Shown here piece by piece: positions 1 to 16,791 of a stretch of 32,184 bases of DNA. The DNA is taken from assembly GCA_965371515.1 (NCBI GenBank), contig CBDUYR010000029.1, forward strand, positions 1 to 32,184, written 5' to 3'. Source of the DNA: an uncultured bacterium. Lineage in GTDB: Bacteria > Krumholzibacteriota > Krumholzibacteriia > Krumholzibacteriales > Krumholzibacteriaceae. The position numbers and the translations under genes were made by a program. The notes beneath the pieces were generated by a model. That model was not told the origin of the DNA, did not search any database, and saw nothing but the letters and a program-made list of their open reading frames with translations. The first letter of the stretch is position 1. Each line of letters starts with the position of its first letter.

Positions 1-102
1 GGCCGCAACGGCAGGGGCGACGTAGTGAGGAACGGAGTATACATCTGCAAGATAACGGCCGGCGGGAAATCCGCGATGTTCAAGATCGCGGTGGCCAAGT
101 AG
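1..102 (+). CDS. 3' end of a secreted protein with an FlgD-Ig / T9SS-type C-terminal domain (5'-truncated by window)
   Basis: Frame 1 reads GRNGRGDVVRNGVYICKITAGGKSAMFKIAVAK* (TAG 100-102). This matches the (WD)GR..G..V..GVY....K.AV pattern of FlgD-Ig sorting domains. Not in the ORF track. Confidence 0.8.
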   Translation, partial: GRNGRGDVVRNGVYICKITAGGKSAMFKIAVAK

Positions 103-112
103 GTGGAGACGG

Positions 113-2002
113 ATGAAGAGAGTACTTGAAATAACGCTGATCATCGCTCTCGGACTCTGTCCGCTCGGCGCTGCCGCGCAGGACGGAGGCGGGGGAACGA
201 GGTCGGTCTTCATTCTCGGCGCCGGGTCGCGGGCCATCTCAATGGGCGGGGCCTTCACCGCCGTGGCTGATGACGCTTCGGCCGTCTTCTACAATCCCGC
301 GGCGATGAAGATCAACGGGGCTCCCACGCTGATGGCGAACCACATCTCGCTCTTCTCCGGATTCACCGACGCGAGCTACGATTATCTCGGGCTCGTCTGG
401 CCGACTCTCGGGGCAGGATCGTTCGGAGCCGGGCTGCTCACGACGGGAACGGGCGGTATCAAGGGCTTCGACGAGTTCAGCAGACCGACCGGGGAGCTCT
501 CGTACAGAGAGAGCCTGGGAATCGTCTCGTATGCGTTCGACATGCCGTGGCGATTCGCCGGCACATGGTCAGTAGGGACATCGATAAAGATCCTCAACCA
601 GAGGATCGGGGATTACTCCGATACGGGCACGGGCCTCGACCTGGGGCTGCTGTACCGCATTAAATATATAGATGGGCTGACCTTCGGTATGAACCTTCAG
701 GATATAGTGGGGGCGAAGACGAAGCTGGTCTCGGCCAGCGATGAAGTATACAGAACGATGATGTTCGGCCTCGGGTACAGAAGGGCGCTCGGGGAGAGCT
801 CGAGACTGACCGTGTCGGTCCAGATGGACATGCCGGAGAAGGCAGACAACGACCTGAGGTTCGGCGCGGAATACACGATCCGCAACATGATCAGCATCAG
901 GATGGGATACGATTCCGAATCGTTCACGGCCGGCATTGGATTCGCATGGCACGGATACTCCTTCGACTACGGATATTTCAGCAGGGAAGAGGCTGGGAGC
1001 TCTCACCCGATCACGATAACCGCCAGGCTCGGGACACCGCTCGAGCAGCAAAGCGCAGAGAGGGAGGAGATTCGCAGGGCCGAGGATGAGAGAAGGCTCA
1101 CCGAACTCTTCGCCGTTCGAGTTGCTTCACACATCGACGCTGCCGACAGCCTGAGAGGAGCCGGTGAGCAGGAGAGCGCACTCGATGAGGTCAAGATAGC
1201 GCTCGAATACGATCCGGGCAACGAGCGGGCCGCGACGCTGCGTGACGAGATCGGTGTGGAGATTCTCGCCGTCCAGGCGGAGCGTACGAAGAACGCCGAG
1301 AAGTCACTTCTGATCAACCAGCATTTCAGACTCGGATTCGAGCACTATAACGCTAACGAGTATATTCTCGCCAGGACCGAAATGCGCAACGTCCTCGAGA
1401 TCGATTCGGAGAACGAGCAGGCGCATGACTACTTGCGCAGAACCGAGGAGAAACTGGACGATCAGCTCCAGTCACACCTCACAGAGGCGGAGGGACATGA
1501 AAGGGCCGGCAGGCTCCCCGAGGCGCTCGGTGAGTGGAACGTCGTCAGGATGATCGATCCCGATAACGCGGATGCTCCAGTGGCCATAGAGCGGATCAAG
1601 GACCGCATAAACAGCATGAGCAGGAGTTACAAGGATGCCAGCCGCAGGCTCGAGACGATCGACCTCTTCGAGAAGGCCGTGACGGCGTTCAGCGAGGGAA
1701 AGTACGAGGACGCGATTACGCTCGCTCGCCGGGTCCTCCAGCTCGATCCGGCCCACGAGCTTGCTAAGGACCTGATCAACAGGGCGGAGCGGAGGATGAA
1801 ACCTCTCAGCGACGACGAGAATGAACAGATAAAGAACCTCCATAAAGAAGGCATGAAATACTCCACACAGAAGGAATATGAGAAGGCGATAGATGCCTGG
1901 GAGAAGATCCTCGATATAGATCCGGATAACGAGGGCGTCAGAAAGAACATCGAGGAGGCGAAGCGGCGGCTCAGAAAACTCGAGTCGTCCGAAGGCGGAT
2001 AA
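113..2002 (+). CDS. PorV/PorQ (UPF0164)-family outer-membrane beta-barrel with C-terminal TPR array
   Basis: Signal peptide, then the motif GAGSRAISMGGAFTAVADDASAVFYNPA and alternating beta-strand pattern to ~aa 305. Repeated TPR ends follow (ALEYDPGN, VLEIDSEN, MIDPDN, LQLDPAH, LDIDPDN). GGAG RBS upstream. Confidence 0.85.
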   Translation: MKRVLEITLIIALGLCPLGAAAQDGGGGTRSVFILGAGSRAISMGGAFTAVADDASAVFYNPAAMKINGAPTLMANHISLFSGFTDASYDYLGLVWPTLGAGSFGAGLLTTGTGGIKGFDEFSRPTGELSYRESLGIVSYAFDMPWRFAGTWSVGTSIKILNQRIGDYSDTGTGLDLGLLYRIKYIDGLTFGMNLQDIVGAKTKLVSASDEVYRTMMFGLGYRRALGESSRLTVSVQMDMPEKADNDLRFGAEYTIRNMISIRMGYDSESFTAGIGFAWHGYSFDYGYFSREEAGSSHPITITARLGTPLEQQSAEREEIRRAEDERRLTELFAVRVASHIDAADSLRGAGEQESALDEVKIALEYDPGNERAATLRDEIGVEILAVQAERTKNAEKSLLINQHFRLGFEHYNANEYILARTEMRNVLEIDSENEQAHDYLRRTEEKLDDQLQSHLTEAEGHERAGRLPEALGEWNVVRMIDPDNADAPVAIERIKDRINSMSRSYKDASRRLETIDLFEKAVTAFSEGKYEDAITLARRVLQLDPAHELAKDLINRAERRMKPLSDDENEQIKNLHKEGMKYSTQKEYEKAIDAWEKILDIDPDNEGVRKNIEEAKRRLRKLESSEGG

Positions 2003-5000
2003 GTGAAGAAAGAACTCCTTAGGGACAGAGAGACATTTCACCTGGAAATCCCGGCCGACGAGAACAACCTCAGCGAGGTCAGGGATTTCATCGCAGAGGT
2101 GTGCGTAAAGGCCGGTTTCTCCAAGCGCGAGACGAATAACACGAAGCTCGCGATGGACGAGGCCTGTACCAACATCATCAAGCACGCCTACTACGACAAG
2201 GCCGGGACGATACGAATAGACGTTCAGGCGGAGCCAGGCAAGGTCGAGATCAATATCTTCGACAGGGGTAAACCCTTCGACTGGTCAGGTGTGAAGGACC
2301 CCGACCTGCAGAAATACGTCGAGATCGGTAAAAAGGGTGGCCTCGGGATCTTCTTGATGAACAGGTTGATGGACGATCTGGACTACCAGGCGTCCGAGAG
2401 CGGCAACCGGCTCTACATGCTTAAAATGGCCGGTACCGGGAGAGACAGGCCGCTGTTCTTCTCGATCAAACGGAAATGGACATCGACCCTCAGGTTCAAA
2501 TTCGCCTTCAGAGCGACCCTCGGGCTCCTCGGCCTGGTCTTTTTCCTCTGGGCAATCCAGTTCGTCAACCAGTCCAGGGATGTCGCCGAGAGGACCAGTG
2601 AGGCATGGGCGTCTATGGAGAGCTTCGCCAACGCGGTGGAGTCAAAGAGCGAACCGGCGATGATCAGGGATGACCTGTACGATCCCGAGTACCTGGAGCT
2701 CACCGATTTTGTGATGGAACGCGTTGTGAAGCACCCCGCGGTCATCTATGCGAGGATCGTCAACAACGACGGGACGATAGTTTCCTCGAACGACGTCGAG
2801 GAGTTCATGAATCGTTATCAGATACCCGTGAGTGCGGAAAAGCTCGATGACAAGGGGACGTGGATCACCGTGGAGGGGTCGAAAGGCGATAAAATAAGGG
2901 AGCTGCACATCCCGATACGTATCACGCGGGATAACGCCGAAAACGTGACTTCGCTCGGACGTATAGTCGTCGGTGTTTCAGAAAAAGTGATAATGAACAG
3001 TATCAACGATCCCAGGCAAAAGACCACCCTTATCATCGCGGCACTGTTTGTTGTAGGACTCTCCCTCATATATCTGCTTATCTCCGTCCTGGTGAAACCG
3101 ATCCAGGCCCTGACTGACGGAGTGAGGGCTATAGGCGAAGGTGATTTCAGCGACGAGTTGGAGATCGACGGTCCTGAAGAAATAGGCGAGATCGCCAGGG
3201 CGTTCAACGAGATAACGTCCAAGTTCCGTGAAGCCCAGAAGAGTGTAGTAGAACAGGAAAGAATGCAGAAGGAGATGCAGGTCGCCCAGGAGATCCAGCA
3301 CTCCCTGCTTCCCAGCAAGGTTCCCGCGGTCAGCGGGTATGACATTGCGAGTCTCTATCGCGCCGCGAAGGAAGTCGGCGGAGACTATTACGATTTTGTA
3401 AGCGTCGACGAGGATACTCTCGGCGTCGTCGTGGCCGATGTTTCCGGAAAGGGCGTCCCCGGATCTCTCGTCATGACGATGATCCGTACCGCCCTGCGGA
3501 TGGAGGCAAGGGGAAGCCACTCGGCCGCCGACGTGATGTCGCGGATGAACGATTTCGTCACAGAGGACATGAAGAAGGGGATGTTCGTCACGATCTTCTA
3601 TGTGATACTCGATTCAAAGAACAGGGTCATCAGCTACGCCAGTGCAGGCCACAATCCGATGGTTCTCTTCAGGGCCGAGACGGACGAGACGTTCTTCCTC
3701 AACCCGCGTGGATTCCCGGTGGGCATCAGCCTCCCCGACGATAGCCTCTTCAGGCGCTCGATCGATGTGGAAAAGATCAAGCTGAAGAAGGACGACATGC
3801 TCGTCATCTACACCGACGGCGTTACCGAGGCGATGAACAGTGAGCGCGAGCAGTACGGCGAGGACCGCCTCCTTGCCCTGATTAAGGAATTCGGCAGGAA
3901 GTCACCCGATGAGTTTGTTGATGCTCTCAACGAGGATATCAAGGTTTTCACCAGCGGGTTTCCGCAGAATGACGATATCACCGTCGTGGCGTTTAAAGAA
4001 AAGATGATGGCCGACGACGTGCTTTACGGCATCCGCAAGAAGCTGCTTGATCTCGTGGAGGTAGAGGGTTTCACGGTGGCCGAGGCGTGTTCGCGCATGA
4101 AGGTGTCGCCGTCGACCTATTACAGGTACAAGAAGCGTATGACCGAGATGGGAGAGCGCGGGCTGAAAAACAAGAACCTGCGAGAGGAGCACGAGATAAA
4201 GCGCGTCAACCTCGAGCAGAGAAAAGAGCTTCTCGAGATAATCAGGCGCGCCCCGAAGTTTGGTGCGAAGAGGATAGCGACCGCATTCAATGAAGGCAAG
4301 GCCGAGCGTGAAACACTGACTTCCTCGCTCATATACGACGAGCTGAAGAGGATGCGTCTCAATACGTACGAAAAGAGGCTCGAATATCTGAGACGGAACA
4401 GGTTTATCTCGGAGGAGCAGTTCCAGGCTATGCTTTCCGGCGAGGAGCCGGCCGCCGCCACGGCTGTCGAGTCCGGTGACCTGGACGAGGTGGCGGCAGA
4501 GGAACTGACCGCCGTGGATGAGGATGCCGGGGAGGCAGCACCCGACGATACGGACCTTACCGAGTATCAGCCCGTTACCGTCTCGAGGTATGAAGGCGGC
4601 GAGGAGGAGGACGATGTCGAGAGACTGCTCGCTTCCGTTCTCGGTACTGATGCGGGCGATGGTGGCCTCATAGAGGTCATGACGCAGGACGAGGAGAGAG
4701 GGATCATCGTAGTCAGAGTCACAGGCCACCTTGACTCGAGCTCGGCCGGAGAGCTCGAGGTCTTCCTCGAAAGCGTCTACGAATATGGATTCTCGAAGAT
4801 TGTCATCGACCTGGAAGGCGTGCCGTACATAAGCAGCGGCGGATGGGGCATATTCACCGGACGTGTGAAGATGCTCAGGGAAAAAGAGGGAGACGTAGTG
4901 CTTGCAGGCATGTCCCTCGAGGTATTCGATATATACGAGCTGCTCGGGTTCCAGGATATCATCATGCATTTCCGTAATATAGACGAAGCGGTCGACTTCA

Positions 5001-6316
5001 TCACTCTCCCGTTCGAAGTCAGGCAGGAAAGGCTCGCGCTCGTATCGGGCAGCGCATCGGAAGGGAAACGCCTCGAGCAGAGGATCAGCGCTGTCTCGAA
5101 AGAGGAAGCGGTGCTGGAGGAAAAAGAAGGAGCCGTTCCGTGGTCCTCGCTCACGATCGAGGCAGGCACCGTAGGCGAGTCGGGCGAGATCACTATCCTC
5201 AGCCTTGTCGGGGTCATAGATACGGTCAGCTGCATGAAGCTCCGCGAGGTGCTCGAGAACCTCGTCTCGAAAAGCGTGACGAAGTTCGTTGTAGACATGT
5301 CCATGGTCGAGTATGTCAGCAGCGCGGGATGGGGTGTCTTCGCGTCGAAGATCGACGAGGTCAGGCGCTCCGAGGGCGACATAAAGATCTTCGGGATGGA
5401 TCCCGAGGTCGACAGCATTTTCCACCTGCTCGGATTCGACGTGATCATGCGCTCGTTCAGCATCCTGTCCGAGGCGATAGGGGATTTCGAAAGCGCACCT
5501 GCGCTTGCCGGATCGACAGCGGTGATCCCATCGCTGGTGACGGTTTCCGATGAGGATCCTAATGCGGAAGTTCCGCTCGAGATGCCTCCGACGGAAAGCG
5601 GACCGACGGATGCCGACCTGATGAAACTGGAGTTCGAGGTGGCGGCCAGGCGCTCACCGGACGGGAGATCGATGGTGCTCGATATCTCCGGTGCTATAGA
5701 CGCGGCAACATCCGCCTTGTTCGAGGACAGGCTCGAACTGGCCATCGAGGACAGTCCGAGGTTTTTCGTGATCGATCTCTCCGGCGTCATCTACATAAGC
5801 AGCAGCGGTTGGGGCGTGATCGTCAAGTACATGCAGAAGATCGTTGCCTACGGCGGGAGGATGGCGCTGTCAGGGATGAACCAGCCGATATTCAAGATAT
5901 TCAGGGACCTGGGGTTCGAGCCGCTGATACCTCACTTCATGAGCAGCGGGGCGGCTCTGTCCGAACTCGCCGCACCGAGCGCAGAATCGCTGGTAGAGGA
6001 ACCGGTCCAGAAAAGAAAACAAGAACCAGTTGTAGAAGATGAGGTCAAGGAGGACCCTGAACCGGTTAACGCCTTCCGGTCAGATCCGCTGCCCGCGAAA
6101 CCCATAGAGCCGCAGATTGAGAAGGCCGGCGTCGAACCGATCGAGCCCGCGGCGAGGGAACACGTCGAGACCCTCGACGTCAAACTCGATCTTTCCGATA
6201 AGGTCGACGAAGCCGAGGGGAAGGATGGCAGGATCCGCAAGCTGGGATGGGGAGAATACGGCAAGAAACTGTTCGCGCGAAACAGAAAGAGGGATGGGAG
6301 GAAGAAGAAGGAATGA
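2003..6316 (+). CDS. Multidomain membrane partner-switching protein: RsbW-type HATPase - TM - periplasmic sensor - TM - HAMP - SpoIIE/PP2C - double HTH - 3x STAS
   Basis: Kinase boxes LAMDEACTNIIKHAY, DRGKPFD and GGLGIFLM. TM helices at ~2500-2570 and ~3025-3095. HAMP KPIQALTDGVRAIGEG..EIGEIARAFN. PP2C motifs GGDYYD, ADVSGKG, SAGHNP, YTDGVTE and DDIT. HTH at ~4030-4390. STAS loops at ~4826, ~5312 and ~5792. The GTG start abuts the upstream TAA. Confidence 0.92.
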   Translation: MKKELLRDRETFHLEIPADENNLSEVRDFIAEVCVKAGFSKRETNNTKLAMDEACTNIIKHAYYDKAGTIRIDVQAEPGKVEINIFDRGKPFDWSGVKDPDLQKYVEIGKKGGLGIFLMNRLMDDLDYQASESGNRLYMLKMAGTGRDRPLFFSIKRKWTSTLRFKFAFRATLGLLGLVFFLWAIQFVNQSRDVAERTSEAWASMESFANAVESKSEPAMIRDDLYDPEYLELTDFVMERVVKHPAVIYARIVNNDGTIVSSNDVEEFMNRYQIPVSAEKLDDKGTWITVEGSKGDKIRELHIPIRITRDNAENVTSLGRIVVGVSEKVIMNSINDPRQKTTLIIAALFVVGLSLIYLLISVLVKPIQALTDGVRAIGEGDFSDELEIDGPEEIGEIARAFNEITSKFREAQKSVVEQERMQKEMQVAQEIQHSLLPSKVPAVSGYDIASLYRAAKEVGGDYYDFVSVDEDTLGVVVADVSGKGVPGSLVMTMIRTALRMEARGSHSAADVMSRMNDFVTEDMKKGMFVTIFYVILDSKNRVISYASAGHNPMVLFRAETDETFFLNPRGFPVGISLPDDSLFRRSIDVEKIKLKKDDMLVIYTDGVTEAMNSEREQYGEDRLLALIKEFGRKSPDEFVDALNEDIKVFTSGFPQNDDITVVAFKEKMMADDVLYGIRKKLLDLVEVEGFTVAEACSRMKVSPSTYYRYKKRMTEMGERGLKNKNLREEHEIKRVNLEQRKELLEIIRRAPKFGAKRIATAFNEGKAERETLTSSLIYDELKRMRLNTYEKRLEYLRRNRFISEEQFQAMLSGEEPAAATAVESGDLDEVAAEELTAVDEDAGEAAPDDTDLTEYQPVTVSRYEGGEEEDDVERLLASVLGTDAGDGGLIEVMTQDEERGIIVVRVTGHLDSSSAGELEVFLESVYEYGFSKIVIDLEGVPYISSGGWGIFTGRVKMLREKEGDVVLAGMSLEVFDIYELLGFQDIIMHFRNIDEAVDFITLPFEVRQERLALVSGSASEGKRLEQRISAVSKEEAVLEEKEGAVPWSSLTIEAGTVGESGEITILSLVGVIDTVSCMKLREVLENLVSKSVTKFVVDMSMVEYVSSAGWGVFASKIDEVRRSEGDIKIFGMDPEVDSIFHLLGFDVIMRSFSILSEAIGDFESAPALAGSTAVIPSLVTVSDEDPNAEVPLEMPPTESGPTDADLMKLEFEVAARRSPDGRSMVLDISGAIDAATSALFEDRLELAIEDSPRFFVIDLSGVIYISSSGWGVIVKYMQKIVAYGGRMALSGMNQPIFKIFRDLGFEPLIPHFMSSGAALSELAAPSAESLVEEPVQKRKQEPVVEDEVKEDPEPVNAFRSDPLPAKPIEPQIEKAGVEPIEPAAREHVETLDVKLDLSDKVDEAEGKDGRIRKLGWGEYGKKLFARNRKRDGRKKKE

Positions 6317-7059
6317 AGAGTTTCGCGATAATGACGCTGAAGGGGGGCACGGGGAAGACGACGACGGCGGTCAGCCTGGCGCACGGCCTGACCCTGAGCG
6401 GGCGGAAAGTCCTTCTCGTGGACTGCGATCCGCAGCGAAATGTCGCCGTCACTTTCGGTGTCAAGGGAGAAAAGGGGCTCGACGGCCTTCTGATGACCGG
6501 CGACGTCGACATCATCCAGGTAAGGGAGAACTTATTCATCATAGATTCCGGCGGGCGGAGGCTTGTCGAAGTCGAGCTGCAGCTCGGGAGGCAGGAGAAA
6601 CGGGAAGGAAGACTCCGGGACGCCCTGAAGCATCTCAAAGGGTGCGATTATGTCATCTGCGACTGCCCCCCGTCGATGAACCTGATAAGCATCAACGCGC
6701 TTGCCTACTGCGACGAGGTGATAGTACCGGTCGGTATGGACTACCTCTCCGAGGTGGGGGTGCACCAGACGATGGAGATCATCGAGGAGATCGGGTGGAT
6801 CACGGAAAAGAGCTCGATCGAATACAGGATACTGCCGACTTTTTTCGATTCCCGTACCAGGATATCCAGGACAGTGCTGGATGCCCTCAGGGAGCATTTC
6901 GGAGAGAGGATGTTCGGCACGGTGATCAGGATAAATACGGCGATAAGGGAAGCTCCGGGCTCCAACAAGACGATATACGAGCACGCCCCCCTGTCGAGGG
7001 GAGCGTACGATTACTACAAGTTTACCGAAGAGGTGCTCGCTCTCGAGAAAGAGAGCTGA
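6313..7059 (+). CDS. Orphan ParA/Soj-family ATPase
   Basis: Deviant Walker A KGGTGKTT, plus DCDPQ, DCPPS and IRINTAIREAP. Start reassigned to ATG 6313, which overlaps the upstream stop (ATGA). No parB in the window. Confidence 0.92.
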   Translation: MKSFAIMTLKGGTGKTTTAVSLAHGLTLSGRKVLLVDCDPQRNVAVTFGVKGEKGLDGLLMTGDVDIIQVRENLFIIDSGGRRLVEVELQLGRQEKREGRLRDALKHLKGCDYVICDCPPSMNLISINALAYCDEVIVPVGMDYLSEVGVHQTMEIIEEIGWITEKSSIEYRILPTFFDSRTRISRTVLDALREHFGERMFGTVIRINTAIREAPGSNKTIYEHAPLSRGAYDYYKFTEEVLALEKES

Positions 7060-7105
7060 GGCATCCGCCGGCAGACCTGTTTTACTGTATTCCGTGGAGG
7101 AGATA

Positions 7106-7114
7106 TGGTATTAT
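7106..7114 (+). promoter_or_regulatory. Possible extended -10 promoter element
   Basis: TGGTATTAT (TGnTATTAT) lies upstream of the AAGGAG RBS and TTG start at 7139. Confidence 0.35.
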
Positions 7115-7138
7115 CCCTGCTTGCGGAAGGAGATCCTT

Positions 7139-8257
7139 TTGGACAGTTTCGAGTTGAGAGAAGAGATACGTCACGGCGGGGCGAGTTATTTCCTGCAGAC
7201 GAGCTACAACTCTGAGAACGAGCAGATACAGAGTTCGTTTTTCAGGGACGGGGCGGTCTTTGACACGATGGTCAGAAAGGCCGGCGGGGATACGGAACCC
7301 GAGGAGCTCAGGGAACTTACGAAGGAGATCCATCAGCAGAACAAGCAGAGCTTCCGGTTCATCCTTGACGCGAGGGATAACATCGGCAAGTCGGACGATC
7401 CCAATCCGCATCTCAGGCTGGCCGAGACCCTTCTGAGGAGGAACCTCTTCCACGAGGCGATTGCCGAGGCCGAGACAGCGGTGGAAAAGGGAGCGAACGA
7501 TTCGCGGGCCTGGATGGTGATCGGAGAGGCGCTTTACCGGATGGACGAGTTTGATATGGCGCTTGACGCTATCCGCAAGGGGCTCGAGCTCAGTCCCGAC
7601 TATCCTGACCTGCATAACCTGATAGGGAAGATATTCCTCAAGCAGAATATGTGCGGGATGGCTGTCGAGAGCTTCAAGAAGGCGATCGGCCTGAACATGT
7701 ATTACGGTGAGCCATATCTCAACCTGATCCGGACCTACCTGGCCAACACGATCGTCAAGCAGGACTACGAGCTTTCCAGGGACCTTGAGGAAAAATTCTC
7801 ATCGAACCTCGAGAAGGCCAGGCAGCTCAATCCCAACCTGAAGGATGGGATAATCGAAGACTTGAAGGCCCATTTCGAACGGGAGGAGTACGAGGAGACA
7901 CTGAAACTCCTCGACGGGATCGGATCGGCCAGTGGCCGCAGCCTCGTAGACGACATCATCCTCGAGCTCTACCTGATGCTCGTCCAAAGCGGAGACGAGA
8001 TCGAGGAGGAGGATATAGATAAATACCTCGAAAAGGTTGGTGAGATACTGGACAGAAATCCCACCTTTGCAGACGCATGGAACTCGCTTGGCATCCTTTA
8101 TACTGCAAAATGCAAGATATTCATGGACAAGGCGAGCGATGCATTCAAAAAGGCTCTTGAGATAAATCAGGATTACGAAAAAGCGAGAAAAAACCTTAGG
8201 CTTGCGGAGAACGACCGACAAGGAATTTTTATCCTTTTAAAGGCATTATTGGACTAA
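7139..8257 (+). CDS. Cytoplasmic TPR protein with small N-terminal alpha/beta domain
   Basis: TPR motifs GLELSPDYPDLHNLIG, RNPTFADAWNSLG and ALEINQDYEKA. Likely TTG start at 7139 after AAGGAG (the track start is 7094). No signal peptide. Confidence 0.8.
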   Translation: MDSFELREEIRHGGASYFLQTSYNSENEQIQSSFFRDGAVFDTMVRKAGGDTEPEELRELTKEIHQQNKQSFRFILDARDNIGKSDDPNPHLRLAETLLRRNLFHEAIAEAETAVEKGANDSRAWMVIGEALYRMDEFDMALDAIRKGLELSPDYPDLHNLIGKIFLKQNMCGMAVESFKKAIGLNMYYGEPYLNLIRTYLANTIVKQDYELSRDLEEKFSSNLEKARQLNPNLKDGIIEDLKAHFEREEYEETLKLLDGIGSASGRSLVDDIILELYLMLVQSGDEIEEEDIDKYLEKVGEILDRNPTFADAWNSLGILYTAKCKIFMDKASDAFKKALEINQDYEKARKNLRLAENDRQGIFILLKALLD

Positions 8258-8260
8258 AAG

Positions 8261-8290
8261 TTGCACTAATAGATCCGAGGAACCTATAAC
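8261..8290 (+). promoter_or_regulatory. Putative sigma70-type internal promoter for the STAS pair
   Basis: TTGCAC-N18-TATAAC in an AT-rich intergenic gap. Confidence 0.45.
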
Positions 8291-8304
8291 AGGACAGTCA
8301 ACGT

Positions 8305-8673
8305 ATGGACAAACTGCTTATTGATGAAGAAAAGGTCGAGGACGTCGTAGTCCTGAAGCTCCAGGGGCTGGTCGATTCCGGCACGTCCCAGCTGATTGAA
8401 GGGCGGCTCAACGATGTGATTTCTGGCGGTAACGTCAAGATCGTCGTGGACCTCGATCTCGTGGATTACATAAGTTCCGCCGGTTGGGGGATATTCGTCG
8501 GTGAGATCAAGGGCGTCAGACAGAGCAACGGTGATATCAAGCTCGCCTCGATGCGTCCCGATGTACGGGAGGTATTCGACCTGCTCGAGTTCGACACCCT
8601 GCTTACACCGTACGATTCCCGGGGGGATGCTCTGGCAGCGTTCGAAGTAAAAGAAAAAAGCGAATTTGCCTGA
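8305..8673 (+). CDS. STAS-domain anti-sigma factor antagonist (RsbV/SpoIIAA-like)
   Basis: Motifs LQGLVD, IVVDLDLVDYISSAGWGIF, GDIKLA and VREVFDLL. Confidence 0.92.
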   Translation: MDKLLIDEEKVEDVVVLKLQGLVDSGTSQLIEGRLNDVISGGNVKIVVDLDLVDYISSAGWGIFVGEIKGVRQSNGDIKLASMRPDVREVFDLLEFDTLLTPYDSRGDALAAFEVKEKSEFA

Positions 8674-8699
8674 GCCTGGATGCAAAGGGAGCAAAACAG

Positions 8700-9101
8700 A
8701 TGAACGACATCAATATTTCTTTTTCGAAACCTGACGAGAATCCCGATGTATCGGTCATATCGGTCAAGGGATATGTCGACACCACGACCTCGACCGAGCT
8801 CGAGGAGAGTCTCAAGCGCCTGTTGGGCAGGGGACAGTACGACATCGTTATCGATCTCGGCAACGTCAACTACATCAGCTCAGCCGGATGGGGTATATTC
8901 ATAAGCGAGATAAAGGAAATCCGGGAAAACGGCGGGGACCTTAAACTTGCCGCCATGATCGGTGATGTCTACGAGGTCTTCGAACTTCTCGAATTCCAGA
9001 CGATCCTCGAGAGTTTCGATACGGTCGAGGAGGCTGTTACCAGCTTCGGCGAGAGCTCACCCCGCGGGGACGGAAACGCGGAGAGCGAGATCAAAGCCTG
9101 A
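8700..9101 (+). CDS. STAS-domain anti-sigma factor antagonist (RsbV/SpoIIAA-like), paralog
   Basis: Motifs VKGYVD, IVIDLGNVNYISSAGWGIF, GDLKLA and VYEVFELL. GGGAG RBS. Confidence 0.92.
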   Translation: MNDINISFSKPDENPDVSVISVKGYVDTTTSTELEESLKRLLGRGQYDIVIDLGNVNYISSAGWGIFISEIKEIRENGGDLKLAAMIGDVYEVFELLEFQTILESFDTVEEAVTSFGESSPRGDGNAESEIKA

Positions 9102-9130
9102 TCTCGAGCTTTTCGACAGGAAAATGAAGG

Positions 9131-9160
9131 GCCTCCGCCAGACGGCGGAGGTTTTTTTTA
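9131..9160 (+). terminator. Rho-independent terminator closing the signalling cluster
   Basis: CCTCCGCC-AGAC-GGCGGAGG stem-loop followed by eight T. Confidence 0.9.
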
Positions 9161-9218
9161 TTATCCGGGAAAGGCCCTGCTCGGTTAAACTCACCCTGTT
9201 ACTGGCAATGGAGGTATT

Positions 9219-11372
9219 TTGGAGTCATCCAGCTGGACGATTGTCATCGATCCCGATCTCTGGAGGAGCGCAGCCGGCGTAATGCTCGTGCTGTATGCGG
9301 GCTGGGCGTACAGGCGGACCCTGCCGCCCCTGTCCCTGTCCAGACGGGCGACCCTTGCCGGCCTGAGGATCGCCGGTTTTCTTCTGCTTACAGTCTTCGC
9401 GCTGGATCCTTCGATCGTGGCAAGGAGCGAGTCGTCGAGATCGCCGGTTGTTCCCGTCCTCGTCGACGTCTCCGGAAGCATGAGCATCGAAGACAGTGGG
9501 ACGGGCCTGCGGATAGATGCTGCCGTCAGGGCGGCAGGCAGGATAGCCGGATACCTCGGCGAGGCGAGGGTCGACATCCTGCCCTTCGCCGCCGGGCTAT
9601 ACGCTGCGGCGGTATCTCCGGACAGCATCCCTCCGGCGGACGGAGAGGGGACTGATATCTACGGGGCGATCGCAGGGGCTGAGAGAAGATATGCTGGCGA
9701 TAACCTCGCCGCGGTCGTGCTCGTTTCCGACGGCCGCATCACGAGAGGGATGTCGGGAAGGTACGTTCCAGGCCGAGTGCCGGTTTTCGCTGTTGCGATC
9801 GGAGACACTGTCGAAGGGGCGGATCTGTCGGTCGACAGGGTGGAGTACGAGAGGACCGTTTATACGGGGACGAGGGAAGGTGTCAGGGCAGTCATCAGGT
9901 ACTCCTCAGTCGACGGGCGGGCGGCGGTCGTCGAGCTGACCGAGGGCGGAAAGATCCTCGACAGGTTCACTACAGGCCCCCTCAGAGGCAGCGGCCTCAT
10001 CGAGGCGGATCTGAGATACGTCCCTTCCGAAGAGGGCACGCGTTCCATGGAGGTCCGTGTGGCGCCCCTGGAAGGCGAGGTAACGGAAGGGAACAACAGG
10101 GAGATGTTCAGGATAAACGCCCTTAAGGACCGCGTCGAGATCCTGTTCTTCGACGGCAGCCCTGACTGGAACATGACATTCATGCGAAGGTTGTGCGAAG
10201 GTTCGAAAAGGCTGCACATGGACGCCGTGGTTCCCGCTCCGGGAGGGGGATACAAGATGCCCGGTGGTGGAAAGTGGGAGTTTCCCGGAGAGGTGGAAGG
10301 GCTCTCGAGGTATGACCTCGTTATAATGGGTGGAGGAGGGACGTTTCCGTCAGCAGGGGAAGCGGAGACGCTGGCCGAATACATCGCCGCTGGTGGAGCG
10401 GTTCTTTTTATCGCATCGGAGAAATCCCCCGTGCTTTCTATCGGAGCACTGACGTTGCTCCGGCGGGTGCTGCCGGTCACGGCCGCGGGTTCTCCGCGCA
10501 TCGTGACCGATGATTTCCTTGTGACTCCGGGTCCAGCCGGGGATGTGCCCTGGCTGCCGGACATGGGCGGCAGCGGAAGCGCGACGCTCCCTCCCCTGTC
10601 GGGAACTGTAGAGGGACTGTCCCCGACCGCGGGGGCACAGGTACCCCTGGTCCTGACGGGCAACGGGCCGGAGAGGCCGTTTCTCGTCGTCGAGCAGAAG
10701 GGGAAGGGGATATCAGCGGTCCTGCTGGGCTTTCCGGTATGGAGATGGAGGCTTGCCGGAGAAGAAGGGGCCGATGCGTACGATGGTCTTTTCGGAGGAC
10801 TGATACAGTACCTGGCCGAGGGACGAAAGGTGCCTGCTCTAGACGTCCAGACCGACAGGACGGCCTACAGAGCGGGCGAGACGCCGAGGGTCACAGTCTT
10901 TCCCTCCACCGGACGCGCCGGCGAGGGTATCCGCGGCGAGATAGTCGCGGCGGGAAGCGACGGTGTTCCCGTAGAGACTTTCATACCGGCGCCCGATCCT
11001 GAGAGACCCGGGATATTCGAAGCTGTTCTCGGGAACCTCCCCCCGGGAGACTATACGGTCACGGTGAAAGCGGGACCGGGTGACGGGGCCACAGCGGAGG
11101 GCAGTACGACGTTCACGGTCGAACATCTCTCCGTGGAGATGCTTCGCACATCGGGTGACGCCGGGTTGCTCGGAAAGATCGCCACGGCCTCGGGCGGTAA
11201 GGTTGTCCGGCCGGAGGATGCAGGGGAGCTCGCCGGCATGATCGACCTTGAATCTGATACCGTAGTATCGACGTCGGTACGGAAGATACGCGGCAAAGCC
11301 TGGTTCTTCGCTGTTATCGTTCTCGTATTCGCGGCGGAATGGCTGTTCCGCAAGCTCCTCGGCCTCGTGTAG
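9219..11372 (+). CDS. Membrane-anchored VWA + Ig-like + class I GATase-like domain protein
   Basis: Two N-terminal TM helices, MIDAS motif LVDVSGSM with GTD and VLVSDG, and C-terminal TM ending AAEWLFRK. TTG start after GGAGG. Confidence 0.8.
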   Translation: MESSSWTIVIDPDLWRSAAGVMLVLYAGWAYRRTLPPLSLSRRATLAGLRIAGFLLLTVFALDPSIVARSESSRSPVVPVLVDVSGSMSIEDSGTGLRIDAAVRAAGRIAGYLGEARVDILPFAAGLYAAAVSPDSIPPADGEGTDIYGAIAGAERRYAGDNLAAVVLVSDGRITRGMSGRYVPGRVPVFAVAIGDTVEGADLSVDRVEYERTVYTGTREGVRAVIRYSSVDGRAAVVELTEGGKILDRFTTGPLRGSGLIEADLRYVPSEEGTRSMEVRVAPLEGEVTEGNNREMFRINALKDRVEILFFDGSPDWNMTFMRRLCEGSKRLHMDAVVPAPGGGYKMPGGGKWEFPGEVEGLSRYDLVIMGGGGTFPSAGEAETLAEYIAAGGAVLFIASEKSPVLSIGALTLLRRVLPVTAAGSPRIVTDDFLVTPGPAGDVPWLPDMGGSGSATLPPLSGTVEGLSPTAGAQVPLVLTGNGPERPFLVVEQKGKGISAVLLGFPVWRWRLAGEEGADAYDGLFGGLIQYLAEGRKVPALDVQTDRTAYRAGETPRVTVFPSTGRAGEGIRGEIVAAGSDGVPVETFIPAPDPERPGIFEAVLGNLPPGDYTVTVKAGPGDGATAEGSTTFTVEHLSVEMLRTSGDAGLLGKIATASGGKVVRPEDAGELAGMIDLESDTVVSTSVRKIRGKAWFFAVIVLVFAAEWLFRKLLGLV

Positions 11373-12711
11373 GATCCCCTTCATATCGAGAAACGTTCCA
11401 TAAAGTCCAGATGAAAAGAACAAGGACCGGGATCGCCTTGCTCCCGAAATATGTTATCCTGACCAGAGCAGGCCATCGGTCAAGACTGGTCGCAGGATCT
11501 ATCCCCAGGGACGGCAGCAGCCCGAAGAGAGTAGGCATGCCGATCAATATTCCCATCATGTAGACGACCGGAGTTCCCCTGCACAGCACAATTGCCGTTA
11601 TTGCCGGCAACATCATCAGGTAATGATATTCCCATACAGTCTTGAATATCAGAAAAAAGACCGAGGTCCAGATCATCAGGTCAAAAGAATGCCTGTCGGG
11701 GAAATTGCGGAGCTTGAAAGAAGCACGCACTGCCATGATCAGAATCAGAATAGTACAGGCGGCCAGGATTATTCTTTCCGGGCTATTGAATGATCCGATA
11801 ACTCCCAGCGGTCTTTCTGTGGCAACAGGGAACACGGTCCTGTAAAGAACTTTGATAAAAGCCTGGAACCCGAAATCTCCTTTAAACACTGTAGTAAAGG
11901 GACTGAGATTCAACCTCACAAAATCACGAAAAGCATCAGGATGCAGGAAATAATATGGAGCGCTCAGGAGGGTCACTGTGAAGAAAGAGACAATGATACG
12001 CCTGTATAACCTGTCCCGGAAATATGGGACAACGAGCATTATCGTAAATGTTTTCAAGAGAATACTGGCGGACCAGACGGCTGAGGCGATGCCGGGAAAA
12101 GACATCCGGGATATCTTCGAAGATCCATTACCTGACTCGGGAACCGTTTGCCCCTCATCTGTTACACTGACATCACGCTTCCATAGCATCAAAATGAGGA
12201 TTGCCATAATTAACGAGAATTGCCCCATATATTGTTCGATATAGAGCGGGAAATAACCAAGCCACAAAGCTGCCGCAAATACCCTTCTATGTACGGGCCA
12301 TCTATCCCACTTTAAGATCCACAAGACCGTAATCAACAGAAGCAGTTCGTTGAAAACGACCCATAACCAGTAGGCGGGCCATGGTGCAATCAATCGTGAT
12401 ACTAGCGCGCTTAATACTGCAACTGGCGGCAAATACCTGTAATAGTAGAAATAAGGTACAACACGATGCTCGAGGTTCTCCGGCAGATCCTGACAATAGA
12501 TACTATGACCATTTACAAGATTCACTCCACCCTGGTAAATGCCGAAAAAATCCGCCGCTCGTCCCTTGCCCAGTCCAGCTTCAGGAAATATCGATTCGGG
12601 AGTATCCCTCAGAAAAGTGAATATAAAAACAATATGGATGACCAGTGCGGCGGCAAACATACTTCTGGCCAATAGCCTGGTATTTTCTATCGTAAGCCGA
12701 AAACCCATCAT
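11314..12711 (-). CDS. Polytopic membrane glycosyltransferase, GT87/DUF2029-like (GT-C fold)
   Basis: Motifs ADFFGIYQGG, YRYLPP, YMGQFS, SILLK and VWEYHY, with many TM segments. Visibly AT-rich relative to its flanks. Confidence 0.75.
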   Translation of the reverse strand: MMGFRLTIENTRLLARSMFAAALVIHIVFIFTFLRDTPESIFPEAGLGKGRAADFFGIYQGGVNLVNGHSIYCQDLPENLEHRVVPYFYYYRYLPPVAVLSALVSRLIAPWPAYWLWVVFNELLLLITVLWILKWDRWPVHRRVFAAALWLGYFPLYIEQYMGQFSLIMAILILMLWKRDVSVTDEGQTVPESGNGSSKISRMSFPGIASAVWSASILLKTFTIMLVVPYFRDRLYRRIIVSFFTVTLLSAPYYFLHPDAFRDFVRLNLSPFTTVFKGDFGFQAFIKVLYRTVFPVATERPLGVIGSFNSPERIILAACTILILIMAVRASFKLRNFPDRHSFDLMIWTSVFFLIFKTVWEYHYLMMLPAITAIVLCRGTPVVYMMGILIGMPTLFGLLPSLGIDPATSLDRWPALVRITYFGSKAIPVLVLFIWTLWNVSRYEGDPTRGRGACGTAIPPRIRER

Positions 12712-12792
12712 GCTCTCATTCAGAATAGAATATTGTTTTCGAGGAGAATGTATCAGAAATGGTTCGCGGGTTCAAGTTCCTGCAGTTAATGC

Positions 12793-12821
12793 TTGATATT
12801 CCGTGTGCCCGGGGGTAAACT
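12793..12821 (+). promoter_or_regulatory. Putative sigma70 promoter
   Basis: TTGATA-N17-TAAACT upstream of the GGAGG RBS of 12846. Confidence 0.55.
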
Positions 12822-12845
12822 TCTATCCGGAAGCTGGGGAGGTGG

Positions 12846-14525
12846 ATGATGAAGACGTGGTGCTTCCTTCTTCCGGCCGTTCCTTCGACAGTCCTGCTTT
12901 TATATCTTGCGAACGCCGCATCGGGCTTCGTCTCTTCGTCGGTCGTGGTAAACGAGGTCTATTACGACCATCCGGGCAGAGATGCGGGATTCGAATTCGT
13001 CGAGCTCTATTGCACAGGAGAGGTGCGTGTATCTCTGGAAGGATGGTCGATTGCGATGATCGACGGCAGAACGGGAGAGATGCGCGAACTCTGGCGGGCC
13101 GAACCGGGGACGATCATCGAGAGCGGCGGTCTCGCCCTGATCGGGGGCGACAGCTGTGCCGTATCGGCGGCCAATCTCCTGATCGGCTCTATCGAGAACG
13201 GGCCGGATGCGGTGGTCCTTTTATGCGGTGGCGAAGAGATCGACCTGGTCTGCTACGGAGGCGACGATCCGGGCTGCGTTCCAGGCAGATCCCTCTCCCG
13301 CCGGCCGGACGGAACGGATTCCGGCGACACCGGTACGGACTTCGTCTGTGCTTCACCGACTCCCGGTCTGAGAAACTTCCATGACTGCGATCTGGCAGTC
13401 TCGTTCGCGGGGCCTCTCCACGTTCATTGTACATACGAACAGGCCGATATCCCCATCCTGCTCGTGAATACGGGCCTGGAGGGATTCTCAGGGAGCGCCG
13501 TCCTGACCGTATCGAGCGAACAGACAGGGTTCCGGACGGTAGCCGGTAGCAGGCATCTGAGTCCAGCGCTGAAGGCGGGAGAGGAACTGGCGGTGCAGGT
13601 CAGTTGTCCGGGATTGCCTGCAGGGATCTCGAGTCTCGAGATACGACTGGAGGCGGACGGCGACACGAATCGATCGAACGACAGCGGATCAGTAATCGTG
13701 AGCTCCTCTCCGGGAGAGGTCGTTATCAGTGAGATCATGTACAGGCCGGTTGAGGGCGGCGAGTGGATCGAATTGTTCAACAGGTCTCCGGTAACGGTCG
13801 ATATGGCTGGCTGGTCTGTTACTGACCGGTCGGGCGCATCGGGATCGATCAGGGACGGTGTGGAGATCGAGGCCGGATGTTTCGTCGTCCTCGCGCAGGA
13901 TCCTGACGCGGTATCGGCGATCTTCCCCGCCTGCGCGGGGATTGTCTCGGCGCTGGAGAATGGCTGGCCCCGTCTCAATGACGGGGACGGGGACGGTATC
14001 GCCGAGGAGATATTCGTCCGGCTGAACGACGGGACCATTGCTGAGAGCGTCTCATATCGAGCCTTGATCGGCGAGGAGAAGGGACGCTCTATCGAGCGGT
14101 TGTCTCCGGAGTTGTGCAGCGCCGGCAGCGCAGGAATATGGCTCCGCTGCGGGGCTCCTGGCGGTGCTACTCCCGGAGAGAGGAACTACTGCCATACAAC
14201 CAGCATCCCGACGGCGGGTATGACCGTCTCACCCGATCCGTTCTATCCGGAGTTGAACGGCGTGGTGAAGTTCTCCGCGGCTTCCCGTAATGGTGAGATC
14301 TCGTATGGAGCACGCATCTTCGATATGGAAGGGAGGGAGATAGCACGGCTCGCGTCGGGCCCGATCGGAGCCCCGGCGATTTCCTTTGCCTGGGACGGTC
14401 GCGATTCGGGAGGAAGACCGGTAGTTACCGGTCTCTATATCTGCGTGGTGGAATTCAGCTGTGGTGGAGGTGGTGTATGCAGAAGGGAAAAACGTACAGT
14501 AACGGTATGGGCCGGACAGCGTTGA
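12846..14525 (+). CDS. Secreted protein with two lamin-tail domains, a CARDB-like Ig domain and an FlgD-Ig/T9SS-type C-terminal domain
   Basis: Lamin-tail motifs VVVNEVYYD..EFVELY..PTPG.RN and VVISEIMY..EWIELFN..ATPGERN. DTNRSND (CARDB-like). C-terminal VSPDPF..IFDMEGR..WDGRDSGGRPVVTGLYI. Confidence 0.85.
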   Translation: MMKTWCFLLPAVPSTVLLLYLANAASGFVSSSVVVNEVYYDHPGRDAGFEFVELYCTGEVRVSLEGWSIAMIDGRTGEMRELWRAEPGTIIESGGLALIGGDSCAVSAANLLIGSIENGPDAVVLLCGGEEIDLVCYGGDDPGCVPGRSLSRRPDGTDSGDTGTDFVCASPTPGLRNFHDCDLAVSFAGPLHVHCTYEQADIPILLVNTGLEGFSGSAVLTVSSEQTGFRTVAGSRHLSPALKAGEELAVQVSCPGLPAGISSLEIRLEADGDTNRSNDSGSVIVSSSPGEVVISEIMYRPVEGGEWIELFNRSPVTVDMAGWSVTDRSGASGSIRDGVEIEAGCFVVLAQDPDAVSAIFPACAGIVSALENGWPRLNDGDGDGIAEEIFVRLNDGTIAESVSYRALIGEEKGRSIERLSPELCSAGSAGIWLRCGAPGGATPGERNYCHTTSIPTAGMTVSPDPFYPELNGVVKFSAASRNGEISYGARIFDMEGREIARLASGPIGAPAISFAWDGRDSGGRPVVTGLYICVVEFSCGGGGVCRREKRTVTVWAGQR

Positions 14526-15253
14526 TCCTGGCGCTTGGTTGTGCGCTGGCTCAGGGACGGGCAAGGGCGGCGGATTCATGGGAAAGAGGGATGGGAGGTG
14601 TCATGCTTCCCCGAAGGGACCATCCCGTAGTGGACGATGGGACGGGAGGATATATGCTCGCGGTGGTCTCGGCGGCGAATCCGTTCTCCATTCCCGGACT
14701 CTACGAGTCGAAGGCATCCGTCCTGGTTGTCCGCAATCTCTGGTCGACCGGCCTTGATTGGGAACGCATCGGTATATCGGGATACTCCCGGGACCGACTC
14801 GAGGTGTCGGCCGGAGTTGCCCTTCCGGGAGGTTTTTTCCACCTCACGGTCATCACGCGGGCGGACAGCCGGAGAGTGACCGGTTACGGCAGGGATACGG
14901 TGTTCTCGACCGGGTATTCCGCGTCCCTCGAAGTATCATCTGTGGTGGTCGTCGAGATGGAGGCGGGTGCGAGGCTGGACGAGGGACCTTCCCACGTGAC
15001 CGTCCGCGTGGGGAACAGGGGATCTTGCCTGGTCCTGACGCTGGGCAGGGGCAGCCGCCTGGAAAATATCGCCAGGGCGGGAGGGCTCGTCAACATCGCA
15101 GGCTGGCTGTCGTTTCTCGCCGGATACGACCTCGAGTCCGGCGAAGTCTCGGGAGGACTCATGTTCCGGGGGCCCGCTCGAGCTGCTGTTTCTTGGAGCC
15201 TGCATCCCGTGCTTGGGGCCACATATTCCGTATCCATCGGAGCTGTCCGATGA
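14507..15253 (+). CDS. Exported hypothetical protein, probable small PorV-like beta-barrel
   Basis: Signal peptide from ATG 14507 (MGRTALILALG..), then NPFSIPGL and the C-terminal strand HPVLGATYSVSIG. Confidence 0.6.
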   Translation: MGRTALILALGCALAQGRARAADSWERGMGGVMLPRRDHPVVDDGTGGYMLAVVSAANPFSIPGLYESKASVLVVRNLWSTGLDWERIGISGYSRDRLEVSAGVALPGGFFHLTVITRADSRRVTGYGRDTVFSTGYSASLEVSSVVVVEMEAGARLDEGPSHVTVRVGNRGSCLVLTLGRGSRLENIARAGGLVNIAGWLSFLAGYDLESGEVSGGLMFRGPARAAVSWSLHPVLGATYSVSIGAVR

Positions 15254-16743: not shown

Positions 16744-16759
16744 CGTATTTCGAACAATT

Positions 16760-16775
16760 TGGAACCATTTGTGCA
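16760..16775 (+). promoter_or_regulatory. Possible sigma54 (-24/-12) promoter
   Basis: TGGAACCATTTGTGCA has GG-N10-GC spacing and lies in the intergenic gap. Confidence 0.35.
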
Positions 16776-16791
16776 TCTATTCCCGATCGGT

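Follow-up and report, generated by a model that had tools for sequence, protein, structure and literature searches.

Positions 1-9101 of the 32,184-nucleotide stretch analysed here (the window), which stands at the start of contig C29 in the 3.08-Mb genome of an uncultured Krumholzibacteriaceae bacterium, carry seven genes, all on the + strand. They encode the end of a giant surface protein, a PorV-family outer-membrane barrel with a tetratricopeptide repeat (TPR) tail, a membrane sensor that joins a kinase to a phosphatase, an orphan ParA, a cytoplasmic TPR protein and two STAS proteins (Table 1). These genes form a cassette that is real and widely conserved, and in which barrel and sensor are very probably functionally coupled. 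The best reading, to which we give an even chance, is of a partner-switching regulator that takes input from the cargo-bearing barrel. Each module has known relatives, and on present evidence the combination is a variant of partner switching; the cassette is apparently undescribed so far, no description having been found in the open-access literature, exclusive of supplements, which could bear on novelty.

Barrel and sensor are linked across phyla. The sensor, at full length or as pieces in broken assemblies, was found in 33/33 genomes of the same order and 1/7 other genomes of the same class, and the barrel gene lay directly 5' of it in 70 of 73 loci fetched with the sensor, the other three having no upstream DNA. 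The order cargo, barrel with TPR, sensor, STAS recurs in Krumholzibacteriota, Eisenbacteria, Zixibacteria, the phylum of genome G042 (FCPU426) and one Calditrichota-like contig, which is 94% identical to a protein whose cluster includes a Calditrichota member and in which a TPR module is fused to the sensor. A preliminary description of this DNA had staked its idea on synteny in other genomes; gene order proved conserved, so the idea did not fall on that ground. When loci were fetched with the barrel and de-duplicated, the gene after a tailed barrel was the sensor in 28/29 Zixibacteria, 21/21 Krumholzibacteria and 24/24 members of the G042 phylum (including six loci scoring just outside the end cut-off); the barrel itself was present in 75 of 101 Zixibacteria genomes searched. 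Hand-picked tailed barrels preceded a sensor in 5/7 cases, four of these five having been chosen because adjacency was expected. Untailed barrels never did so (0/23), although several have their own cargo. Flanking genes differ between phyla while the core stays, and barrel-sensor pairing persists while the kinase is reshuffled among cassettes (N-terminal, C-terminal, STAS-fused or a separate gene).

The same pairing occurs twice in this genome. A second cassette (G000:C12:18860-33019, L104) encodes a cargo of 2704 amino acids (aa) with a C-terminal domain (CTD) for secretion, a barrel with TPR, a Cache-HAMP-PP2C protein, an RsbW-STAS fusion and a GAF histidine kinase. A terminal TPR tail is found in two of the genome's 11 barrels and Cache plus HAMP in two of its 10 PP2C proteins, and these form two adjacent pairs. 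Similar paralogous cassettes are present in many relatives, including class-mates without the fused sensor, and keep barrel and sensor together at other chromosomal sites.

The sensor is a 1437-aa protein that reads, from the N-terminus, RsbW-like kinase, transmembrane (TM) segment, single Cache, TM, HAMP, PP2C, two helix-turn-helix (HTH) domains, acidic linker, three STAS domains, acidic linker and basic peptide. The metal-binding Asp motifs of the PP2C domain were invariant across 55 sequences, and all three fused STAS domains keep the phospho-acceptor Ser position (in a YxSSxGWG variant), which was matched to RsbV/SpoIIAA by aligning the second free STAS protein. The components of partner switching are thus all present, namely a GHKL Ser kinase, a PP2C phosphatase and STAS domains, with conserved kinase boxes, PP2C aspartates and phospho-Ser position; kinase and phosphatase activity would be expected from family knowledge. 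The Cache domain is weakly conserved (mean column identity 25%) and has no invariant pocket residue. Domain searches confirmed the products named in the preliminary description (PorV-type barrel with TPR tail, kinase/phosphatase, ParA, TPR and two STAS proteins), and added to the sensor the two-HTH region (aa 672-795) and the three STAS domains, which it had not mentioned. The transposase-like match of the HTH region spans profile positions 2-112 of 284 and does not cover the DDE core, so it does not mark a transposase; a search of the region against solved structures gave no significant match, and its Atlas matches, all under 0.9, serve as leads. The second HTH domain is also carried by STAS proteins of relatives. 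We considered it as a dock for STAS on the sensor and dropped the idea, since HTH-less Zixibacteria sensors keep a STAS protein with a similar C-terminal domain (judged by eye).

The barrel protein has a signal peptide at about aa 3-23, the barrel at aa 26-305 and an NPA hatch motif at aa 61. It belongs to the PorV family (NF033709, PorV_fam, 111.4 bits against a cut-off of 90), and scored well below the cut-offs for PorV proper (NF033710, 20.7 against 250) and PorQ (NF033711, 66.8 against 220). The solved PorV structure 6h3i matched it at E 3e-10, and OMPP1/FadL and UPF0164 matches were also obtained for barrels of this kind. The best-conserved section of the tail is its terminal TPR, retained even in short-tail forms and a candidate contact tip, many of whose conserved positions are ordinary TPR consensus positions. 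The tail is presumably periplasmic: hydropathy topologies assign it and the Cache domain to the same compartment, and a periplasmic C-terminus is argued for Treponema FadL-like barrels in the available part of PMC8407342. From typical helix and TPR dimensions, reach across the periplasm seems plausible for the long form of the tail and doubtful for the short. In the FCPU426/Goldbacteria-type genomes G042 and G043, which measure 2-3 Mb, PorV-family barrels give about 30 matches each.

Of the first gene, just 33 codons lie inside the window, and the remainder was searched for in this assembly and not found. Full-length counterparts in relatives are proteins of 3,400-5,400 aa with Big_1/Invasin_D3 Ig repeats and a FlgD-Ig-like CTD at the C-terminus; the secreted FlgD-Ig/CTD cargo proposed earlier is therefore borne out by these relatives, its body not having been recovered here. 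In a tree of few columns, in which the window's 33-residue stub is not among the rows, barrel-adjacent CTDs split from 59/62 generic CTDs of this genome (SH-aLRT 93), and the stub is assigned to the barrel-associated subtype from its relatives in that tree. A cargo gene with a distinct CTD subtype thus adjoins the barrel, as in pairs of cargo and dedicated barrel of the type B kind. The upstream gene ends in the dedicated subtype in most lineages, and cargo bodies vary widely across lineages (about 600-5,400 aa). Genes for CBM48/AMPK-type glycogen-binding and barrel-like proteins are kept just 5' of the giant cargo gene in three loci (L097:1-3857, L098, L100).

The genome also encodes main parts of a canonical type IX secretion system (T9SS), with a SprA translocon (C1:35828-42367) and a porU-porV pair (C8:17660-22818) over cut-off, PorU being the sortase, and many CTD cargos (11 PorV-family and 74 FlgD_ig matches; about 70 CTD proteins). 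The gene behind porU on C8 is a better PorV candidate than the window barrel. GldM and GldN were found in 0/21 genomes, although no control genome scored either, and GldK and GldL were not searched; SprA, PorU and PorV without a GldM or GldN match may represent a T9SS-like system without the Bacteroidota motor. A different recurring barrel cassette (L105, G000:C21:27840-38879; L225, L227, L228) combines a CTD cargo, an untailed PorV-family barrel, a large TPR protein, an ExbB/MotA-like protein and a TonB C-terminal protein, perhaps an energiser for secretion.

Table 1. Features of the cassette in the window.
Feature	Position	Strand	Basis
3' end of giant surface protein gene, last 33 residues, FlgD-Ig-like CTD	1..102	+	match to C-termini of relatives
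PorV/FadL-family outer-membrane barrel with 324-aa helical/TPR tail, 629 aa	113..2002	+	NF033709, 6h3i profile match, hydropathy
Terminal TPR of barrel tail, aa 567-622	1811..1978	+	domain and conservation analysis
Inner-membrane regulator (sensor), 1437 aa	2003..6316	+	domain searches, hydropathy
RsbW-like GHKL Ser kinase domain with N-box and G-box motifs	2036..2425	+	PF13581; 6m36 RsbW, E 9e-24
TM1, periplasmic single Cache (DcuS/WalK-like), TM2	2501..3097	+	hydropathy; DcuS 3by8, E 5.6e-10
SpoIIE/RsbU-type PP2C phosphatase	3323..4000	+	PF07228
Two HTH-like domains resembling IS481/IS630 transposase N-termini	4016..4387	+	NF033577, aa 678-791, E 7.6e-15
Three fused STAS domains	4670..5968	+	domain searches
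C-terminal aromatic-x-x-Tyr-x-basic-basic-Leu motif and basic tail of sensor	6242..6313	+	co-occurrence with ParA
Orphan Soj-like ParA ATPase	6313..7059	+	domain searches, motif inspection
Extended -10-like element TGnTAnnnT, 5' of TPR gene	7106..7114	+	by eye
Cytoplasmic TPR protein, 372 aa, no hydrophobic segment	7139..8257	+	hydropathy, homologue context
Predicted sigma54-type -24/-12 site GG-N10-GC, overlapping TPR stop codon, before STAS pair	8249..8265	+	conservation
STAS protein 1	8305..8673	+	domain searches
STAS protein 2	8700..9101	+	domain searches
Intrinsic terminator	9126..9162	+	9126-9157: z -4.8, 0/200 shuffles

On re-measurement the seven co-directional genes and the closing terminator were as first described, and so were the very tight junctions, for the first three: 10 bp (102/113), 0 bp (TAA directly followed by GTG, 2002/2003) and -4 bp (ATGA overlap, 6313-6316). 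The last three are wider, at 79, 47 and 26 bp (taking TTG at 7139 as the probable start of the TPR gene). Because these later junctions hold promoter-like motifs, the locus is probably transcribed as nested units, not as the one transcript proposed at first. A candidate extended -10 element was seen by eye in the window and in about half of 24 relatives, and a sigma70 scan gave no promoter on the + strand. The sigma54-type site is conserved as DNA: 26/26 relatives and four further loci retain both the TTG Leu codon and the non-coding TTGC, TTG use elsewhere in these genes being 9.5%, and the genome encodes RpoN and 18 strong matches to sigma54 activators. Spacing, DNA-level conservation and the presence of RpoN all agree with a predicted sigma54 promoter. 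The strict sigma54 pattern has seven matches genome-wide against 3-8 in shuffles, and the window site therefore rests on conservation, not rarity. Sites of the canonical form also precede the cargo gene in 7/8 assessable Krumholzibacteria loci (the eighth has a one-base variant by eye; four more loci were not assessable), 7/8 Eisenbacteria and 1/10 paralogous cassettes, the figure for background genes being 24-33/1067. The notion that a sigma54 site precedes STAS in every phylum was rejected, since among STAS genes only the first one of Krumholzibacteria was found to have such a site.

Control of a SigB-type sigma factor found no support: no SigB/F/G-type factor passed the TIGR02980 cut-off in this genome (one control genome passed), and no sigma gene was seen within the cassettes inspected. 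The genome does encode two RpoS-like sigma factors. None of the eight non-receiver sigma54 activators scanned, of 18, bears STAS or RsbW; four activators in this genome (L294-L296, L299) have long MalT-like TPR regions (up to 1544 aa). The TPR protein is 29% identical (E 8e-43) to the protein L257 from the G042 phylum, and its homologues adjoin STAS in that phylum and some Zixibacteria and in none of the Eisenbacteria loci. The single STAS(-HTH) gene of other phyla finds its closest counterpart in STAS protein 2. In some Zixibacteria (L251-L255) STAS is split from its C-terminal HTH-like part right after a poly-Lys (A-rich) tract, the two being fused in L248, L249 and L256; programmed frameshifting, phase variation and sequencing error are alternative explanations.

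The ParA encoded after the sensor has an intact deviant Walker A motif and, of the two Arg positions with which Soj binds DNA, keeps one. Contig C10 carries the chromosomal parA-parB pair, and no parB adjoins the window gene, which is therefore an orphan. The earlier suggestion that ParA acts on a C-terminal tail gains from co-occurrence: in 87 of 89 loci with room, presence of ParA agrees with presence of the sensor's C-terminal motif (44 both, 43 neither), and the peptide is a candidate for ParA binding. The two discordant loci have ParA with no regular-expression match to the motif (one near-match, one frameshift), and in one of the 'neither' loci the gene is frameshifted and ParA lies further along. 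This agreement reflects two or three evolutionary events. Krumholzibacteria and one subgroup of Zixibacteria are the only lineages with ParA after the sensor; within Zixibacteria it is present in 10/10 HTH-bearing loci and 0/14 complete HTH-less loci. ParA is not the core part that it was taken for, being absent from Eisenbacteria, Goldbacteria/FCPU426 and many Zixibacteria loci. PpfA is one known orphan ParA system. In two others, McdA and ParC, a Soj-like ATPase without parB likewise sits beside its cargo and is engaged by a charged disordered peptide, which in the partners covered by the available text is N-terminal (bioRxiv 10.1101/2022.06.09.495121). The candidate peptide here is C-terminal, which would make it a variant, and on a membrane kinase-phosphatase.

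Taken together, these parts suggest how the cassette could work. The giant Ig-repeat protein would leave the cell by way of the genome's SprA/PorU/PorV machinery, and the PorV-family barrel dedicated to it would retain it on the surface by means of the special CTD subtype, much as PorP-like barrels retain type B cargos. A periplasmic TPR arm would report the state of the barrel (cargo loaded, pulled or shed) to the single Cache domain, directly or through a short-range partner, and HAMP would set the PP2C phosphatase against the RsbW-like kinase of the same chain. Their balance would fix Ser phosphorylation of the three fused and two free STAS domains, and the output may act on attachment functions by way of STAS, HTH and TPR partners, perhaps extending to the sigma54 promoters of the cassette itself, and not on a SigB-type factor. 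In two lineages the orphan ParA would bind the C-terminal peptide and position the complex. In this full form, a new class of surface signalling in which load, pull or loss of an adhesin sets STAS phosphorylation through a TPR arm, with output by HTH domains domesticated from transposases (on sensor and STAS alike) in place of a sigma factor, sigma54 feedback and ParA positioning, the proposal is tentative and its chance somewhat short of even.

Several observations weigh against input from the barrel. The counts draw mainly on orthologues, which were ranked by similarity to the query and are not independent, so the loci amount to a handful of independent lineages. Some tailed barrels have no sensor beside them: L138 and L141 (two of three picked regardless of neighbours; the third, L137, does have one), as well as L191 and the Treponema proteins. 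In G073 barrel and sensor are found on separate contigs, and in G010 a paralogous Cache-HAMP-PP2C protein (L167) has no barrel nearby. A Goldbacteria-type lineage has barrel and sensor alone between rnr and his genes, with no cargo or STAS and about half the tail. The first helix of the terminal TPR, which is the proposed contact tip, drifts from the family consensus in this genus (window 1811-1860; genus g1 loci L002-L006). Evolutionary rates of tail and Cache covary (rho 0.38; 94 branches, 52 loci, with 16 short-tail loci of 68 excluded) no more than those of tail and kinase (0.37), a pair unable to touch, so the signal is non-specific, and tip-Cache covariation (0.17) was not significant. 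The sigma54 site before the cargo gene is scarce in Zixibacteria (3/12) and was found in 0/5 loci of the G042 phylum. Finally, 37 cassette-type PP2Cs group apart from 10 others, a single group that suggests one origin followed by duplication and shuffling, but this grouping (support 93/86) is under the starred threshold and includes long branches.

The foremost alternative, which we consider unlikely but to be taken seriously, is a regulator beside its target. The sensor would read a soluble periplasmic cue and regulate biofilm functions or the genes for adhesin and barrel, in the manner of SypE/SypA or SiaA-C, and the TPR tail would bind a cell wall protein, translocon or chaperone as PorE does for PorP, linkage reflecting co-expression only. 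The Cache fold is indeed that of DcuS/WalK sensors, and the unpaired tailed barrels and sensor, together with the non-specific rate covariation, fit this account. So does PorE itself, a TPR-bearing protein that binds a cargo-bearing barrel with no signalling known for it in the accessible part of PMC9143113. It is also in keeping with one cassette (L085:13712-21909) that runs on past STAS with genes for a GGDEF protein, for polysaccharide export (Wza/Wzz/tyrosine kinase), for the cytoplasmic TPR homologue and for a sugar transferase. What this account leaves unexplained is why the sensor adjoins only tailed barrels (0/23 for untailed ones) and why barrel and sensor stay paired after cargo and STAS are lost.

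Those same cargo-less Goldbacteria-type loci would suit a FadL-like role in uptake and sensing, in which the barrel imports a hydrophobic small molecule captured or produced by the cargo, the TPR cleft passes it on and Cache senses it. The retained NPA hatch motif and the OMPP1/FadL and UPF0164 matches point the same way, and Treponema FadL-like barrels with a C-terminal TPR are proposed as importers in the available text of PMC8407342. We nevertheless regard this as improbable, given that the best family match is PorV_fam, that most lineages have a dedicated CTD subtype at the end of the upstream protein, that cargo bodies differ so widely in length and that the Cache domain has no conserved pocket. 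An ancient gene block kept by vertical descent with no present coupling, which the drifting TPR tip of this genus and the synteny of downstream genes in two phyla might suggest, is very improbable, since flanks change between phyla around a constant core, paralogous cassettes keep the pairing elsewhere on the chromosome, and the genes abut or overlap.

Of known systems, the syp genes of Vibrio fischeri are sigma54-dependent, as is predicted for parts of this cassette. Their SypE joins a kinase and a phosphatase in one chain that acts on the STAS protein SypA, not a classical anti-anti-sigma factor, to control attachment, in the accessible account (PMC4517449). SypE is soluble and receiver-controlled, however, whereas the cassette sensor has TM-Cache-TM-HAMP between kinase and phosphatase, HTH/STAS fusions and an outer-membrane partner. 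The Bacillus RsbU/V/W proteins, Mycobacterium Rv1364c, Pseudomonas SiaA and Chlamydia RsbU share the same catalytic families (matches 6m36 and 3ke6); Rv1364c is related in architecture and SiaA and Chlamydia RsbU as Cache-bearing proteins. The SiaA model match to the sensor falls below cut-off, and we know of no pairing of any of them with an outer-membrane barrel. The RsbU/V/W scheme, as outlined in the available part of PMC8256260, differs in its SigB-type output, for which no SigB/F/G factor of this genome passes the cut-off. Pseudomonas HsbR-HsbA and Shewanella CrsR-CrsA also fuse PP2C to a GHKL kinase, with RpoS and a diguanylate cyclase among their outputs in the accessible text of PMC6482189, and are paralleled here by the two RpoS-like factors and by the GGDEF gene after STAS in L085. 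Unlike the cassette, they take phosphorelay input and have no membrane or outer-membrane component.

On the outer-membrane side, type B cargos of the T9SS (SprB-SprF; PG1035-PorP-PorE) likewise have the gene for a CTD cargo next to that of its dedicated barrel, which is 14-stranded and of the FadL family, and a TPR module in the periplasm (PMC9143113, in part). Here, by comparison, the barrel falls in PorV_fam and the CTD resembles FlgD-Ig, a single chain joins TPR to barrel with no OmpA cell-wall domain, and the next gene encodes a membrane sensor; the GldM/GldN negative, with its unscored control genomes, is a further difference. In Treponema pallidum TP0548, TP0859 and TP0865 (UPF0164), too, a FadL-type barrel ends in a periplasmic TPR bundle, to which no function is assigned; theirs is a short three-helix bundle, with no adjoining cargo or sensor described in the portion of PMC8407342 available.

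Downstream of the cassette (window 9219-18324) lie genes for a vWA-domain membrane protein and a lamin-tail/FlgD-Ig cargo, and two unassigned open reading frames (ORFs). The vWA and lamin-tail genes are syntenic 3' of the cassette in Krumholzibacteria and Eisenbacteria. Between them a 465-aa ORF of lower GC (window 11314-12711, - strand) had no Pfam or NCBIfam match and was not present in 73 related loci.

In the Cache sensor, the TPR extensions of FadL/PorV-like barrels, so far unexplained, would gain a partner that can be tested, and the sensor's C-terminal motif is a candidate peptide for an orphan ParA to bind. With two paralogous cassettes, this genome also supplies its own controls for specificity. 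If contact between tail and Cache is real, the cassette would represent a new class of surface signalling, barrels of the T9SS family would gain a signalling role, and uncultured phyla of sediment and groundwater would have a way to monitor attachment through a giant surface protein.

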